Shown one piece after another: positions 2,115 to 61,147 of a stretch of DNA of 64,000 nucleotides (positions within the stretch are counted from its first letter, which is position 1; every line of letters begins with the position of its first letter). Below the pieces are notes generated by a model, which saw only the letters and a program-made list of their open reading frames with translations, ran no database searches and was not told where the DNA came from. Made by a program: the position numbers and the translations under genes. This DNA comes from Candidatus Aenigmatarchaeota archaeon (GTDB lineage Archaea > Aenigmatarchaeota > Aenigmatarchaeia > CG10238-14 > SpSt-28), in contig JAWBNO010000001.1 in assembly GCA_039000725.1 (NCBI GenBank), positions 323,795 to 387,794 on the forward strand, written 5' to 3'.

Positions 2115-2369
2115 TTATTCGACAATTTTATATACTTTATCTCCTTCTCTAACTCTTTCAACAACTTTTAAACCAATTGATTGCCCTTTAATTCCTTCAT
2201 TTACATCTTTATGTTCTATTTGCATAGATTCAACTATTTGAGAAAAATTTGTTGTTCTTCCTTCAATACTAATTTTATCTCCTTTTTTTAATGTATTTTC
2301 TAGTTCAATTACAGCTACACTTATTTTTGGATAGAAATGTGTAACTTTTCCAACGTACACTTTTTCCAT
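2115..2369 (-). CDS. Small beta-barrel protein (translation-factor domain-2-like), function unknown
   Basis: 84-aa ORF with pattern GKVTHFYPKISVAVIEL...GDKISIEG...GLKV, resembling an EF-Tu domain II-type barrel. Confidence 0.5.
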   Translation of the reverse strand: MEKVYVGKVTHFYPKISVAVIELENTLKKGDKISIEGRTTNFSQIVESMQIEHKDVNEGIKGQSIGLKVVERVREGDKVYKIVE

Positions 2370-2422
2370 ATGAAGATTTTTATTATAAAAATAAATCTTG
2401 ATTTTTCAATCTTAGTTTCTTT

Positions 2423-2558
2423 TGCCGGGGGTGGGATTTGAACCCACGAAGGGACTAACCCAGCAGGTTTCTTCACTGCTCAGAGCTTATGTGCCTAGCC
2501 AGCACTTAAGCTTCGGCAATGGCGTCTGCCGCCATTGACCAGGCTAGGCGACCCCGGC
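2423..2558 (-). tRNA. Intron-containing class II tRNA, probably tRNA-Leu (possible anticodon UAA); about 50 nt of intervening sequence
   Basis: Acceptor gccgggg/ccccggc with A73. Leu-type D-arm gcct-agcctggtcaa-tggc, T-arm gtgggttcaaatcccac, and variable arm tgggttagtcccttc. 82 nt lie between position 26 and the T-stem, where about 32 are expected. I could not place the anticodon with a single canonical intron. Confidence 0.65.
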
Positions 2559-2561
2559 TAT

Positions 2562-3179
2562 TTATAATTTAGAAATTTTATTCTTAAACTCTAATACTTT
2601 TTTCTCTAAAACCTCTAGGCTTAATTCTACTATTTCTTCTGGTTTTAATCCGGAGCAACTTTCTACTTCAAATACTATTTTTCCATCTTGAATAGAATAA
2701 CCAACAACGGCGGCTTGCCATTTTACATGATCTTTACCATAACCAAGTCTAGCATAGGCAATAAGGTCTATTTCTTCTCCTTCAAAAAGTTGAACTATTG
2801 GTATATTATCAAATACAGGTTTAACTTTCTCATCTTCTGATTTTAGATCTCCAGAGTAAACAATGCACGGACCTTTCTTTTTTAGTGCCAATTTACAATA
2901 TAAGGAAGGTTCTTTAACATCATCTAAATTCTTTGCTTCTTCAGGTATTTTATAAGTTTTTTTATCGTATGTTAAAGGAATTAATCCTAATCTATGTGCC
3001 AATATTTCATCATAAAGAGCAGAGTCGTTCTTCTTTATGTCAATCCATTCTATTGCCATAGTTGGAATTTCGAATGACATTATTCTTCTAAGGGCATTTG
3101 CGAAGCCAACTTTTAAGTTTTCTACCGAAAATTTAATTTTTTCTTTATCCTTTTCTAATATTTCTATTTTCAATGTCAT
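2562..3179 (-). CDS. rpoD: DNA-directed RNA polymerase subunit D (Rpo3)
   Basis: N-terminus FANALRRIMSFEIPTMAIEWIDI...YDEILAHRLGLIPL is typical of RpoD/Rpb3. Confidence 0.85.
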   Translation of the reverse strand: MTLKIEILEKDKEKIKFSVENLKVGFANALRRIMSFEIPTMAIEWIDIKKNDSALYDEILAHRLGLIPLTYDKKTYKIPEEAKNLDDVKEPSLYCKLALKKKGPCIVYSGDLKSEDEKVKPVFDNIPIVQLFEGEEIDLIAYARLGYGKDHVKWQAAVVGYSIQDGKIVFEVESCSGLKPEEIVELSLEVLEKKVLEFKNKISKL

Positions 3180-26611: not shown

Positions 26612-26626
26612 AAAATCACTTCAATT

Positions 26627-26711
26627 CGCTGGGGGCGGGATTTGAACCCGCAAGGGCGTAAGCCCACAGGCTTAGCAGACCTGCGCCTTAACCAGGTTCG
26701 GCCACCCCAGC
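26627..26711 (-). tRNA. tRNA-Ser (GCU), class II, no intron
   Basis: gctgggg/ccccagc acceptor with G73, anticodon loop ctGCTaa, long variable arm tgggcttacgccctt. Confidence 0.9.
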
Positions 26712-26776
26712 ATATTAAAATTATCTCTCTAAACTTTTATATTGAGAATATAAAATTAAAAATCGGAGGGAGCAAA

Positions 26777-48204: not shown

Positions 48205-48306
48205 AGCCCTGGGCGGGACTCGAACCCGCAACCCCTCGCTAACTTGTCTTCATTATTCAGATTAGCGTATTACAAGGCGAGTGCTCTACCGTTGAGCTAC
48301 CAGGGC
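48205..48306 (-). tRNA. tRNA-Thr (UGU) with a canonical-position intron (about 30 nt)
   Basis: gccctgg/ccagggc acceptor. Anticodon stem ctcgc/gcgag, loop ctTGTa followed by the intron. The intron 3' segment acaag pairs with cttgt, as in a bulge-helix-bulge (BHB) motif. Confidence 0.85.
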
Positions 48307-52141: not shown

Positions 52142-52243
52142 CGCCCCCGGCGGGATTTGAACCCGCGACCGTCACCTTTCATCCTTTTCATCAAACCTTC
52201 TCGATAGAAGGGTGCCGCTCTATCCAAGCTGAGCTACGGGGGC
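52142..52243 (-). tRNA. tRNA-Arg (UCU) with a canonical-position intron (about 27 nt)
   Basis: gcccccg/cgggggc acceptor. Anticodon stem gcacc/ggtga (G27-A43 mismatch). Loop ctTCTa followed by the intron tcgagaaggtttgatgaaaaggatga. Confidence 0.8.
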
Positions 52244-55952: not shown

Positions 55953-56360
55953 ATGAGAAAAGAAGTTTTGGTACTGTTTTTGGTTTTAATATTATTTTTA
56001 TCTAGCTTAGCTTATAATTATGCGATTTTCTTTAATTATAATAAGAGAGTAGAAATACCAAAAGAGAAAATTTTAAATAAAATATCTGAAGAGGAACGAA
56101 ACCTAGCACTTCAGTATGGCTATACGTTGATTTATTATAACTACAGTAATGAGTATGATGAAATAAAAAACTATCTGGAGAGTTTGACTTATGATAAAGC
56201 TATTATTTTGATTTTAAATAGAGGTGAGGAAAAAATTATTGTAGAAAGTTTGAAAGGAAAAAGAGAATTATATAAACCATCTTTAAATGAAACTTTTAAT
56301 TTAGTATGCGAAATAGCAATAGATTCTCCATTAGACTGTTTGTTGAGGGAAATAGAATGA
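55953..56360 (+). CDS. Membrane-anchored hypothetical protein
   Basis: 135 aa with an N-terminal TM helix. Its stop overlaps the endA start (ATGA). Confidence 0.5.
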   Translation: MRKEVLVLFLVLILFLSSLAYNYAIFFNYNKRVEIPKEKILNKISEEERNLALQYGYTLIYYNYSNEYDEIKNYLESLTYDKAIILILNRGEEKIIVESLKGKRELYKPSLNETFNLVCEIAIDSPLDCLLREIE

Positions 56361-57538
56361 AAGAGGAAAAAGAAGAAATAAGAATTTATCTGGAAAAAGA
56401 AAAAGCCTTTTCAACTAATTTAGATTTATCGCAGAGTTTTTTTGGTGATGTTAAAAACAATAAGGTTTACCTAGATCCAATAGAAGTTATTTATTTAGCT
56501 AATATAAGAAACGCTAAGGTTTTTGATGGAAAAAACCAATTATCTCTCTCTCAAATTTTTCAAAAATTTTTTTCGTTCCATTCTTTTGTTAGGTATAGTG
56601 TATTTAGAGATTGGAGAGATAGGGGGCTTTTTATTTCCTTTCCTAAGAAATTAGAGACTAAAGATTATGGTAAGAGTCCAGTAAAAAAGTATCCATCATC
56701 AGACTTTAAAATATTGACAAACTTTACTTTGTATTTTTTAAGAGAAGAGTGTTTTTCCTTAGCTTTCGGAAAAGAGGCTAAGAAAGCTTATGAAGAATAT
56801 TGGTTTGGCCAATGGGGAGTTTATAAAAATTATGAACGAGGAAATAATTTAACTTTAGATCCAATTGAAACTTTATATCTAGCAAAAAAAGGATTTGATG
56901 TTGTTGATATTTTTTCGAATGAAAAAATACAGTATGAAGATTTGGTTAAAGAAATAGAAAAGAGAATTCCACATATTACAAGAATTTTAGAAGTTTATGA
57001 AGATTGGCGAGATAAAGGTTTTATATTAAAAACTGGTTTTAAATTCGGTACTCATTTTAGAATTTATTTTCCCGGAGCAAAACCAGTATCTAATAAAAAA
57101 GAATGGATTCATTCTAAACATGTTCTTCATGTTTTTCCAAAGGAAGTTAGCATGCCTATGAGTGAATGGTCAAGAGCGATAAGAGTTGCACACAGTGTTA
57201 GAAAAACATTCATAATGGCAATTCCTGGAATGAAAAAGGAGGATTATTTAAGAGAAAAGACACCAATTGATTTTGTTGCTTGGCATAGAAAATCTGGAAA
57301 TCAAGTTGAAAGACCAGACAAAGATAATCCCTCTTTTTTAATCATTTCCTTAAATGAAGATGAAAACTTGAGCGGAAAAATGTTGGCTAGTGCTTTAGAT
57401 AGAGCAGATGAATTAGGATTAAGATTGTTGATAGCTATTAATGATAGGGAGACTAGTATAACATATTATTTAGCAAATAGGATAGAGCTTCCTGGTTCAG
57501 AACATAAATATTATGAGATAGAATGGTTTACTCCTTAA
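56357..57538 (+). CDS. endA: tRNA-splicing endonuclease, long multi-unit form (393 aa)
   Basis: Catalytic unit YEDWRDKGFILKTGFKFGTHFRIYFPG...HSKHVLHVF...RVAHSVRKTFIMAI (Tyr/His/Lys). It is preceded by a degenerate repeat (LDPIEVIYLANIRNAKVF...FRDWRDRGLFISF) and followed by about 100 extra C-terminal residues. Confidence 0.85.
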   Translation: MKEEKEEIRIYLEKEKAFSTNLDLSQSFFGDVKNNKVYLDPIEVIYLANIRNAKVFDGKNQLSLSQIFQKFFSFHSFVRYSVFRDWRDRGLFISFPKKLETKDYGKSPVKKYPSSDFKILTNFTLYFLREECFSLAFGKEAKKAYEEYWFGQWGVYKNYERGNNLTLDPIETLYLAKKGFDVVDIFSNEKIQYEDLVKEIEKRIPHITRILEVYEDWRDKGFILKTGFKFGTHFRIYFPGAKPVSNKKEWIHSKHVLHVFPKEVSMPMSEWSRAIRVAHSVRKTFIMAIPGMKKEDYLREKTPIDFVAWHRKSGNQVERPDKDNPSFLIISLNEDENLSGKMLASALDRADELGLRLLIAINDRETSITYYLANRIELPGSEHKYYEIEWFTP

Positions 57539-59144: not shown

Positions 59145-59772
59145 AATTCTGGCTGATCCCGCCAGAGACCACCACTATCCGGGTCCGACTAAGCCATGCG
59201 AGTCGTGAGGGGTGAGCCCTCGGCGTCCTGCTCCGTAATACGCAGTCAACCTACCCTAGGGAGGGGGATAATCCCGGGAAACTGGGGCTAATACCCCATA
59301 GGTGTAAGGCGCTGGAAGGCCCTTACACCGAAATGGCGCTCGTAGCCGCCCTAGGATGGGACTGCGGGGCATCAGGTTGTTGTCGGGGTAATGGCCCGAC
59401 AAGCCGATAACGCCTACGGGCCATGAGAGTGGGAGCCCGGAGATGGACTCTGAAACATGAGTCCAGGGCCTACGGGTCGCAGCAGGCGCGAAACCTTCGC
59501 AATGGGCTAACGCCCGACGAGGGGACCCGGAGTGCCCGTGCTTTGCACGGGCTGTTGCCCTCTGTAAACGGGAGGGCGAGGAAGGGGTGGGTAAGACGGG
59601 TGCCAGCCACCGCGGTAATACCCGCGCCCCAAGTGGTGGTCACGGTTATTGGGTCTAAAGCGTCCGTAGCCGGCCTAGTAAGTCTCGAGTGAAATCCTGC
59701 AGCAAACTGCAGGGCTTGCTCGAGATACTGCTAGGCTCGGGACCGGGAGAGGGCAGCGGTACGCATGGGGTA

Positions 59773-59880
59773 ATGAATAGTGTGCGTACCTTTGAGCTTA
59801 TGCGATGAAAAGAAATTTTTAATTATCACGAAGCTATAATTTTCACTAGAGATCAGAATCTTAGCACACTATTCACCCTA
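59773..59880 (+). other. 16S insertion/intron 1 (about 108 nt) within ggggta|aggggttaaatcc
   Basis: An AT-rich block splits the conserved GGGGTAGGGGTGAAATCC-type segment. Terminal inverted repeat tgaatagtgtgc / gcacactattca. Confidence 0.7.
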
Positions 59881-59957
59881 AGGGGTTAAATCCTGTAATC
59901 CCATGCGGACCACCAGTGGCGAAGGCGGCTGCCTGGAACGGGTCCGACGGTGAGGGA

Positions 59958-59996
<39 letters not shown>

Positions 59997-60095
59997 CATG
60001 AGTTAGGGTATCTTCTGATTTCAAGATGAGGAGTATCTAATCCTTTGAAAAATGATAATGCTCCCCACAGCTAGGACTCTAACTCATGCGGGAAA
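59997..60095 (+). other. 16S insertion/intron 2 (about 99 nt) within gattagataccccggta|gtcctagccgtaaacgatg
   Basis: Splits the universally conserved GGATTAGATACCC-GGTAGTCC block. Terminal inverted repeat catgagttag / ctaactcatg. Confidence 0.75.
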
Positions 60096-60347
60096 GTCCT
60101 AGCCGTAAACGATGCCCGCTTGCTGTCGCACGCTCTTCGGGAGCGTGCGGTGGCGGAGCGTAGGTGTTAAGCGGGCCACCTGGGGAGTACGCCCGCAAGG
60201 GTGAAACTTAAGGGAATTGGCGGGGGAGCACACAAGGGGTGGGACGTGCGGTTCAATTGGACTCAACCCCGAGAACCTTACCAGGGCCGACGGCAGGATG
60301 AAGGTCAGGCTGAAGACCTTACCAGACGAGCCGAGAGGTGGTGCATG

Positions 60348-60573
60348 AGAAGAATAGCCCTAAATCAAAAAAGTTTGTAACAAATGTATGAGATATACAC
60401 TAATAAGTATGAAAAAGGAAAAATGTCATTCCAGTCCAGAAGTGTATCGTAATGGTATAAATATCGAAGTTTGAATAAATACAAAAGTGAGTAATTTAGA
60501 ATTAATTGGGAAAAAATAGACAAGTTTCATTGAAAAATACTTACTCTTTTGAAAAGGGCTATTCTTCTGCAAA
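60348..60573 (+). other. 16S insertion/intron 3 (about 226 nt) within ggtgcatg|gccatcgtcagctcgt
   Basis: Splits the GGTGCATGGCYGTCGTCAGCTCGT block. 13-bp terminal inverted repeat agaagaatagccc / gggctattcttct. I saw no ORF of useful length. Confidence 0.75.
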
Positions 60574-60821
60574 GCCATCGTCAGCTCGTACCGTGAGGCG
60601 TGCCGTTAAGTCGGTTAACGAGCGAGACCCCCGCCCCATGTTGCTACTGCCTTCTCCGGAAGGCAGGCACTCATGGGGGACTGCCCGCGATAAGTGGGAG
60701 GAAGGAGGGGGCGACGGTAGGTCCGTATGCCCCGAAAGCCCTGGGCCACACGCGCGTCACAATGCGCGCTACAAAGGGATGCAACCCCGAAAGGGGAAGC
60801 AAATCCCCTAAAAGCGCGCCC

Positions 60822-60858
<37 letters not shown>

Positions 60859-60884
60859 CGGAATCCCTAGTAGGCGGACGTCAT

Positions 60885-60975
60885 CATGTTAGTCGGAAGA
60901 GTATGATTTACATGCACCACTACGAATTTTAAAAAATGAGGAAATGTGGGAAATGATCTTCCGGCTAGCATGAAA
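60885..60975 (+). other. 16S insertion/intron 4 (about 90 nt) in the hairpin between ctagtaggcggacg and cgttcgccgaatacgtccc
   Basis: AT-rich block with the terminal inverted repeat catgttagtcggaaga / tcttccggctagcatg. The boundaries are the least certain of the six. Confidence 0.6.
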
Positions 60976-60984
60976 GCGTTCGCC

Positions 60985-61021
<37 letters not shown>

Positions 61022-61088
61022 GCCAACCGAGTGGAGCTCCCTCGAGGCCGAAAGGTCGAGTGGGAGCTCCGCGAGGGGGGCTAAGTCG

Positions 61089-61147
61089 CCACGGGCGGCC
61101 AGACGAGTTAAAAGCTCGAATGATGATCTTTAATGTCTGGCTACCGG
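61089..61147 (+). other. 16S insertion/intron 5 (about 59 nt) within aagtcg|cgacaaggtagccgta
   Basis: Splits the AAGTCGTAACAAGGTA block. Inverted repeats gtcgcc/ggcgac and gccagac/gtctggc. Confidence 0.65.

Follow-up and report, generated by a model that had tools for sequence, protein, structure and literature searches.

A tRNA-Leu(UAA) locus in an Aenigmatarchaeota genome, read with two closely spaced introns that contain complements of the D-arm

Introduction

A 136-nt locus on the minus strand at 2423-2558 of the window (the whole stretch of 64,000 nucleotides of DNA that was analyzed) has an acceptor stem of 7 bp and a D-arm of the Leu type, as well as a long variable arm, a T-arm and A73; these elements had all been recognized in an earlier note made on this DNA. 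As the same note had counted, 82 nt are located at tRNA-sense 30-111 where 32 would be expected, a surplus of 50 nt. The locus raises the question of which tRNA it encodes and how the surplus is removed. Three short introns had been proposed previously. Here, the locus is considered probably to be a single-copy functional tRNA-Leu(UAA) gene with two endonuclease-spliced introns, one between tRNA positions 30 and 31 and the other between positions 37 and 38. It provides a compact comparative case for the handling of two introns 7 nt apart by an archaeal endonuclease, together with the testable idea that splicing order may be guided by intron sequences complementary to the D-arm. The host assembly, from an archaeon of the DPANN group, comprises 704,799 bp in 14 contigs, with a G+C content of 29%, and is approximately 90% complete. 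Its RNA genes are G+C-rich in comparison with the genome, a contrast from which we infer a probably thermophilic host.

Gene Limits and Detection by Standard Finders

Read 5' to 3' on the minus strand, the locus is GCCGGGGUCGCCUAGCCUGGUCAAUGGCGGCAG-ACGCCAUUGCCGAA-GCUUAAG-UGCUGGCUAGGCACAUAAGCUCUGAGCAGUGAAGAA-ACCUGCUGGGUUAGUCCCUUCGUGGGUUCAAAUCCCACCCCCGGCA, and window coordinates were obtained as 2559 minus the tRNA-sense position. The variable arm UGGGUUAGUCCCUUC, the discriminator A73 and the anticodon UAA are those of a class II Leu tRNA, while the CCA end is not encoded. When the two introns of the whole gene (2423..2558, minus strand) were removed in silico, the product of 86 nt was folded by ARAGORN as tRNA-Leu(UAA), and the tRNA body is the same as in the tRNA-Leu(CAA) of this genome, in agreement with the identity that had been suggested for it.

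The unspliced locus 2423-2558 was not detected by ARAGORN in default mode. With introns permitted, the program reported Ser(gct) i(36,57), namely Ser(GCU) with a single 57-nt intron, which is a miscall. The Rfam tRNA model returned no tRNA match in window 2300-2700 at E <= 10, where a T-arm fragment appeared under tmRNA only. In the host genome, UUA represents 49% of Leu codons (46 per 1000), and four Leu tRNA genes were found in the assembly (UAA, CAA, UAG and GAG), with the present locus as the sole UAA gene. The sole decoder found for the commonest Leu codon of the host is missed or misnamed by standard tools, and tRNA inventories of DPANN archaea therefore look incomplete unless non-canonical introns are modelled.

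Two-Intron Layout and Spliced Product

All parts of the gene are located on the minus strand. Exon 1 (2526..2558, tRNA-sense 1-33) contains the 5' strand of the acceptor stem, the D-arm, G26 and the anticodon-stem nucleotides 27-30 (GCAG). It is followed by the 14 nt of intron 1 (2512..2525), placed between tRNA positions 30 and 31, and by the micro-exon GCUUAAG (2505..2511), which supplies positions 31-37 with the anticodon UAA and is invariant in 9 orthologs. Intron 2 (2469..2504), with a length of 36 nt, occupies the canonical 37/38 site. Exon 3 (2423..2468, tRNA-sense 91-136) provides A38, the CCUGC strand, the variable arm, the T-arm, the 3' strand of the acceptor stem and A73. It can be observed in the precursor that the 5' strand GCAG is followed by 14 nt and then by G-CUUAAG, and that CCUGC lies directly 5' of the variable arm. 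Excision of ACGCCATTGCCGAA at 30/31 and of the 36 nt after G37 results in the perfect arm GCAGG-CUUAAGA-CCUGC. In the ARAGORN fold of this product the anticodon stem is paired at 5/5 positions, and the 7-nt loop CUUAAGA has U33 and a purine at position 37, as a cloverleaf requires. The mature loop in turn fixes the borders of intron 2.

The paralog tRNA-Leu(CAA) (G000:C1:113999-114119) displays the anticodon arm GCAGG-CUCAAG|intron|A-CCUGC. Its 5' 33 nt and 3' 49 nt are identical to the locus, the latter including the whole of exon 3, and a single difference, C34 to U34, separates mature tRNA-Leu(CAA) from the spliced locus. Moreover, the 3' end of intron 2, GAAGAA|A or UAAGAA|A, matches the canonical introns of the paralogs. 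The predicted exon/intron borders and the perfect mature anticodon arm are supported by sequence and comparison alike. The earlier view that more than one intron is needed, one of them non-canonical, holds for the pair 30/31 and 37/38. Regarding the three pieces proposed for excision, the first was placed correctly apart from a shift of one base, whereas the second and third, with the 6 nt between them, correspond to one canonical intron. The strand UCUGA, which had been taken for the 3' strand of the anticodon stem, belongs to the D'-box region of a K-loop module described below, and the true strand is CCUGC, as in tRNA-Leu(CAA).

Splice Motifs and Endonuclease

Archaeal splice motifs consist of a 4-bp helix with 3-nt bulges, and cleavage occurs after the second bulge base 3' of each strand. 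At intron 1, C25-G26-G27-C28 pairs with GCCG (CGGC/GCCG), with bulges AG|A and AA|G, and the geometry predicted from the sequence is canonical, the helix being 4 bp long and each cut falling two bases 3' of a helix strand. The outer helix contains two pairs, G24-C32 and G23.U33. An inner helix is absent from the 14-nt intron, the 5' cut being located in a 10-nt loop, and the motif is therefore classed as bulge-helix-loop (BHL). The motif of intron 2 is a relaxed BHB. Its central helix CUUA/GAAG consists of three pairs and an A.G mismatch and overlaps the K-loop. It has AG|U and AA|A as bulges, and its outer helix is supplied by the anticodon stem. A BHB or one of its relaxed forms (hBH, HBh', BHL) is accordingly found at both introns.

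The central helix at 30/31 differs among four gene lineages but is paired at 4/4 positions in each: CGGC/GCCG as here, CGCA/UGCG in the Leu(UAA) gene of genome G028, CGCG/CGCG in the Leu(CAA) gene of genome G043, and CAGC/GCUG in the tRNA-Lys(UUU) gene of the host. In the paralog tRNA-Leu(UAG) (G000:C1:882-1011), CGGC/GCCG is accompanied by an inner helix UAAU/AUUA, giving a full hBHBh' motif. An alternative register of intron 1, with the helix 29-32/41-44 and cuts after 34 and 46, was thermodynamically similar and had good geometry. It was rejected, since its product lacks an anticodon stem-loop and the paralogs are unable to form it.

Within the window, a three-unit endonuclease of the epsilon2 type, EndA, is encoded at 56357..57538 on the plus strand. 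The protein of 393 aa has the Pfam catalytic and N-terminal domains, matches PDB 4fz2 (395 aa) over its full length (E = 6.6e-91), and is the predicted cutter of both introns. RtcB is encoded at G000:C1:419964-424220 (+). Judged by gene presence, an endonuclease for relaxed motifs and an RtcB ligase are both available in the genome. The RtcB matches lie in one open frame of 1472 aa and fall into three pieces (profile positions 1-28, 28-50 and 49-426), a pattern that suggests two large in-frame insertions, possibly inteins.

Conservation among Orthologs

The ortholog alignment contained 9 sequences, of which 8 belong to the genus of the host and 1 (G023) to a different family. All exon bases of the anticodon arm are kept in the 9 orthologs, and the stem of the two-intron product is paired in 100% of cells, with G31 opposite C39 in 9/9 sequences. 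In the 8 same-genus genomes the exons are 100% conserved, while the introns vary. Intron 1 has a length of 13-14 nt among the orthologs, and its changes are all compatible with pairing. The same Leu(UAA) arrangement was observed in 9 of 371 genomes of the phylum, distributed over two genera, and a phylum-wide pattern search returned no orthologs beyond these 9. A scan of the GTDB collection for the gene produced mostly bacterial noise, and a metagenome scan gave 120 random matches, none of them in a tRNA context.

K-Loop Module of Intron 2

Intron 2 contains a K-loop module at 2470..2490 (minus strand), comprising a guide-like 7-mer AUAAGCU (2484-2490), a D'-like CUGA (2480-2483), a loop, and a C'-like UGAAGA (2470-2475); the stretch CUGA-GCAG-UGAAGA forms the D'-loop-C' K-loop. 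The D'-loop-C' module (YUGA, 3-8 nt, UGANRR) is present in 12 tRNA introns of the host genome, and position 1 of D' and position 6 of C' covary in these, being C-G in six introns and U-A in six. The carriers are the genes at window 48205-48306 and 52142-52243 and ten further tRNA genes. In a short duplex, AUAAGCU forms 6/7 pairs with tRNA positions 30-36, which sets U34 opposite the fifth base upstream of D'. This register, with the 7 nt 5' of D' opposite positions 30-36, holds in 9-10 of the 12 K-loop introns.

An intron that guides modification is known from Haloferax, where the tRNA-Trp intron directs Cm34 in box C/D register (Singh et al. 2004, summarized in PMC11408192). Like that guide, intron 2 has C/D-type boxes beside a sequence that pairs with the anticodon region and would put position 34 in the methylation register, and genes for fibrillarin, Nop5 and L7Ae were found in the host genome. 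Unlike it, intron 2 has an internal D'/C' K-loop only, a terminal pair of C (RUGAUGA) and D (CUGA) boxes being absent from this intron; the guide is 6-7 nt in length as opposed to approximately 10-12; and the module recurs in 12 different tRNA introns of the host. Because of the absent terminal boxes and the short duplex, the resemblance is one of mode of action and not of membership of the box C/D guides, and by analogy the K-loop of intron 2 may work like half a guide. Intron 1 was also considered as a box-D guide (YYGA after CGCCAUUG) and rejected, as the target would be G23 and there is no C box.

Alternative Readings of the Locus

The reading with three introns, proposed in the earlier note with pieces of 14, 19 and 17 nt, would produce the arm GCAGA-CUUAAGC-UCUGA with a G27.A43 mismatch. 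The resulting 86-nt product is likewise called tRNA-Leu(UAA) by ARAGORN, and a G27.A43 mismatch does occur in two genes of the host, tRNA-Arg(UCU) and tRNA-Arg(CCU). The comparison of 9 orthologs, a check that the note itself had proposed, contradicts the stem GCAGA/UCUGA, which is paired in 62% of cells against 100% for the two-intron stem; position 31 varies among A, C and U, and the UCUGA strand becomes UCAGA, UUUGA or GUUGA. Since the pairing is reduced to this extent and the 3' strand mutates freely, this three-intron reading is rejected as extremely unlikely. Furthermore, UCUGA is the D'-box region of the module common to 12 introns, a 4-bp helix in BHB register is missing from all three pieces (the note had been unable to confirm canonical BHB geometry for any of them), and seven positions (31 and 38-43) distinguish the product from the paralog, against one for the two-intron product. 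A decaying pseudogene copy of tRNA-Leu(CAA), or a Ser(GCU) gene with one 57-nt intron, would suit the Ser(gct) call of ARAGORN and the blindness of the Rfam model, and is nevertheless very improbable. A pseudogene, which had been raised as a case that would overturn the earlier model, appears very unlikely from the sequences compared, given exons invariant in the genus beside variable introns and the position of the locus as the sole decoder found for the commonest Leu codon. The Ser reading requires the anticodon loop CCUGCUGG with G37, conflicts with A73 and the Leu-type D-arm, and would duplicate an ordinary tRNA-Ser(GCU) already present at window 26626-26712.

The same mature tRNA could also be reached by three excisions in total, intron 2 being removed in two nested steps, in which a helix CUUA/UAAG would direct excision of tRNA-sense 55-75 and the 15-nt K-loop piece 76-90 would then follow. 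This guide helix consists of 4 bp without a mismatch; AG|U follows its exon strand and CU|C its intron strand, a spacing that is BHB-like. It is paired in 9/9 orthologs, and the order of guide, CU and D' box recurs in most K-loop introns. However, the second bulge has no outer helix behind it, and in tRNA-Thr(UGU) the anticodon complement is located 3' of the K-loop, with one ordinary BHB. Nested removal is considered unlikely, and removal of two introns, at 30/31 and 37/38, is the reading carried forward below.

Intron Segments Complementary to the D-Arm

Exact complements of the D-arm, both 8 nt in length, occur in the introns as had been noticed earlier: CGCCATTG with CAATGGCG, and GGCTAGGC with GCCTAGCC. 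In 5000 trials with shuffled introns, complements as long as these arose 11 and 23 times, respectively, and the two occurred together once. Segment X, CGCCAUUG, is located in intron 1 (2517..2524, minus strand) and pairs with the D-loop and the 3' half of the D-stem at window 2530-2537, so that helix X joins tRNA-sense 22-29 with 35-42. Segment Y, GGCUAGGC, is located in intron 2 (2493..2500, minus strand) and pairs with the 5' strand of the D-stem and the D-loop at window 2542-2549, helix Y joining 10-17 with 59-66. Y is an exact 8-bp complement (p ~0.002) and is paired in 100% of cells across the 9 orthologs. Helix X displays compensatory changes at pair 23:41 (AU in 5 sequences, GC in 2 and GU in 2) and at pair 25:39 (UA in 7, GC in 1 and UG in 1). 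The covariation score, which has 9 closely related sequences as its basis, was reached by 0/500 shuffles.

The minimum-energy fold of the whole precursor is a long hairpin that hides the D-arm, as the earlier note had anticipated, with a free energy of -68.5 kcal/mol (z = -5.3; 0/200 shuffles as good). This hairpin contains both X and Y, in comparison with cloverleaf-based folds of about -42 to -43 kcal/mol at 37 °C. When the intron-1 motif was enforced, the best fold retained Y as the outer stem, at -57.7 kcal/mol (37 °C), and the fold of intron-1 motif and Y is compatible with 9/9 orthologs. Helix X competes directly with the productive intron-1 motif, yet it appears to be selected. A pseudoknot uniting helix X and the intron-1 motif was rejected as sterically implausible, since no nucleotides would be left for its connecting loops. 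After removal of intron 1 in silico, Y drops out of the minimum-energy fold, and folds built on the cloverleaf, with the intron-2 motif present, come to within 6-7 kcal/mol of the minimum.

Among other genes, the two-intron tRNA-Lys(UUU) genes of four genomes have D-arm complements of 7-9 nt in the 5' part of intron 2 (p 0.0004-0.005), in different registers. Of nine single-intron tRNA genes, 8 are without a D-arm complement and one has a 6-mer (p = 0.03). In two further two-intron genes, Leu(UAA) of G028 and Leu(CAA) of G043, no anti-D-arm element was found.

Proposed Order of Splicing

Ordered processing of multi-intron pre-tRNAs was reportedly described by Tocchini-Valentini et al. in PNAS in 2009. 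At the present locus, the motifs of intron 1 and intron 2 both use C32 and U33 of the micro-exon and therefore cannot form together. Being mutually exclusive, they suggest that the introns are removed one after the other, and such sequential removal would keep the 7-nt anticodon micro-exon from being released. Intron 1 would leave first and intron 2 second. The intron-1 motif needs the 3' strand of the D-stem, G26 and positions 27-28, and thus the cloverleaf must be unfolded at this stage. Segment Y, within intron 2, would hold the 5' strand of the D-stem in an 8-bp helix beneath the intron-1 motif, to which it would serve as outer stem. Segment X would form a competing, more stable hairpin with the 3' half of the D-arm, probably as an early co-transcriptional helix or as a lock. 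Subsequently, once the exons have been ligated, X would be lost and the advantage of Y gone, the D-arm and anticodon stem would form, and the relaxed intron-2 motif would become cuttable. Furthermore, the D'/C' K-loop of intron 2 with its 7-nt guide would place position 34 for box C/D 2'-O-methylation.

From the fold models we infer that pairing with the D-arm scaffolds the 30/31 splice motif and orders splicing, a model that explains the role of X only loosely. Tentatively, the anti-D-arm segments may represent a built-in folding device, by which the cloverleaf would be opened, the 30/31 motif displayed at the end of an extended hairpin, intron 1 forced out first and the micro-exon kept from being set free. 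If this were the case, the introns would act as intramolecular chaperones of their own ordered removal, and the two-intron Lys(UUU) genes would share the principle. It is also possible, although doubtful, that splicing involves the same two introns while helices X and Y are functionless relics or products of chance and the long hairpin is off-pathway. The two genes that manage without anti-D-arm elements, the competition of X with the productive motif and the close relationship of the orthologs are all consistent with this. In addition, the Leu micro-exon region (GGCUUAGG) is inherently near-complementary to the D-arm (GCCUAGCC), and the complements could therefore arise from duplicated anticodon cassettes. 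Against the functionless reading, all substitutions at paired intron positions, two double changes among them, preserve pairing, while free variation is seen at the unpaired first base of the intron. The Lys(UUU) genes, moreover, retain complementarity with the D-arm although the register shifts, which points to selection for pairing and not to inheritance of sequence.

Other RNA Genes of the Genome

The layout with introns at 30/31 and 37/38 was also observed in tRNA-Leu(UAG) at G000:C1:882-1011 (minus strand) and at loci L149-L153, L155 and L156. Intron 1 of this gene holds a second unit, GCUGA(A/G)|GCUCAGA|A, consisting of a splice-acceptor helix and a Leu(CAG) anticodon loop, and conservation of this unit is 100% across 8 genomes from 3 families. 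In the genomes that bear the unit (genus g1 six times, G029 and G051), no standalone Leu(CAG) gene was found, whereas the genomes with a standalone CAG gene (genus g2 five times and G025) are without the unit. Judged from these sequences, alternative splicing may allow the Leu(UAG) gene to provide two isoacceptors. The Leu(UAA) locus was searched for a second, concealed anticodon micro-exon of this kind, and none was found.

The tRNA-Lys(UUU) gene at G000:C7:96683-96813 (plus strand) has introns at 30/31 and 37/38 that enclose a 7-nt micro-exon GCUUUUA, with a full hBHBh' motif at intron 1 and an 8-nt D-arm complement, CAGGCUGA, in intron 2. It scores only 31 bits with Rfam and is unlisted by ARAGORN with introns allowed. 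In tRNA-Cys(GCA) at G000:C7:80684-80783 (plus strand), a decoy 3' anticodon-stem strand, CUGGU, opens the intron after position 38, and the true strand CCGGU is located 29 nt downstream of it. A 3' part of a tRNA, ACCGGAAGGUCGAGGGUUCAAAUCCCUCCCGGCCCA, with its T-arm at about 111519 (minus strand) of G000:C1, has no recognizable 5' part within 100 nt upstream, and could be one half of a split tRNA or belong to a gene whose intron is long or unusual. The 16S rRNA gene at window 59146-61132 (plus strand) has a length of 1987 nt against a model of 1478 positions, and thus contains several insertions, one of which is 121 nt.

Comparison with Known Systems

Ordered processing has been described for the multi-intron pre-tRNAs of C. 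merolae, in which the 37/38 intron is removed last (PMC3728597). The locus resembles these precursors in having several BHB motifs per precursor and, as proposed here, a set order, which at Leu(UAA) is suggested by overlapping pairing partners and computed energies. It differs in the intron helper proposed here, which would sequester the D-arm and is not described in the multi-intron literature consulted.

Regarding the enzyme, the ARMAN-2 epsilon2 endonuclease (Fujishima et al. 2011, PMC3239211; structure 4fz2, PMC3488258) cuts strict hBHBh' and bulge-helix-loop motifs (PMC3239211), and the epsilon2 type was previously found only in the Micrarchaeum and Mancarchaeum lineage (PMC5829648). EndA of the window is, by sequence, a full-length homologue, and the range of the ARMAN-2 enzyme, hBHBh' and bulge-helix-loop, is the range needed at the Leu(UAA) locus. 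Unlike in ARMAN-2, the epsilon2 EndA here occurs in Aenigmatarchaeota and its cutting is predicted from homology. The distribution of this endonuclease now extends to that phylum.

Genes for tRNA with multiple introns are known from Thermoproteales, Korarchaeum, M. kandleri, N. equitans and ARMAN-1/2 (Sugahara et al. 2007/2008, reviewed in PMC4033280 and PMC4090602), and the tRNA-Leu(UAA) locus belongs to this established archaeal kind. The shared features are at least two introns spliced by the endonuclease, of which one is placed elsewhere than 37/38, BHB motifs in strict or relaxed form, omission by standard finders, and hosts with an endonuclease of broad specificity. The present gene differs from those just named in its Aenigmatarchaeota host, in the spacing of its introns, which are separated by only 7 nt and leave the anticodon loop as a micro-exon, and in the conserved complements of the D-arm that both introns of Leu(UAA) carry.
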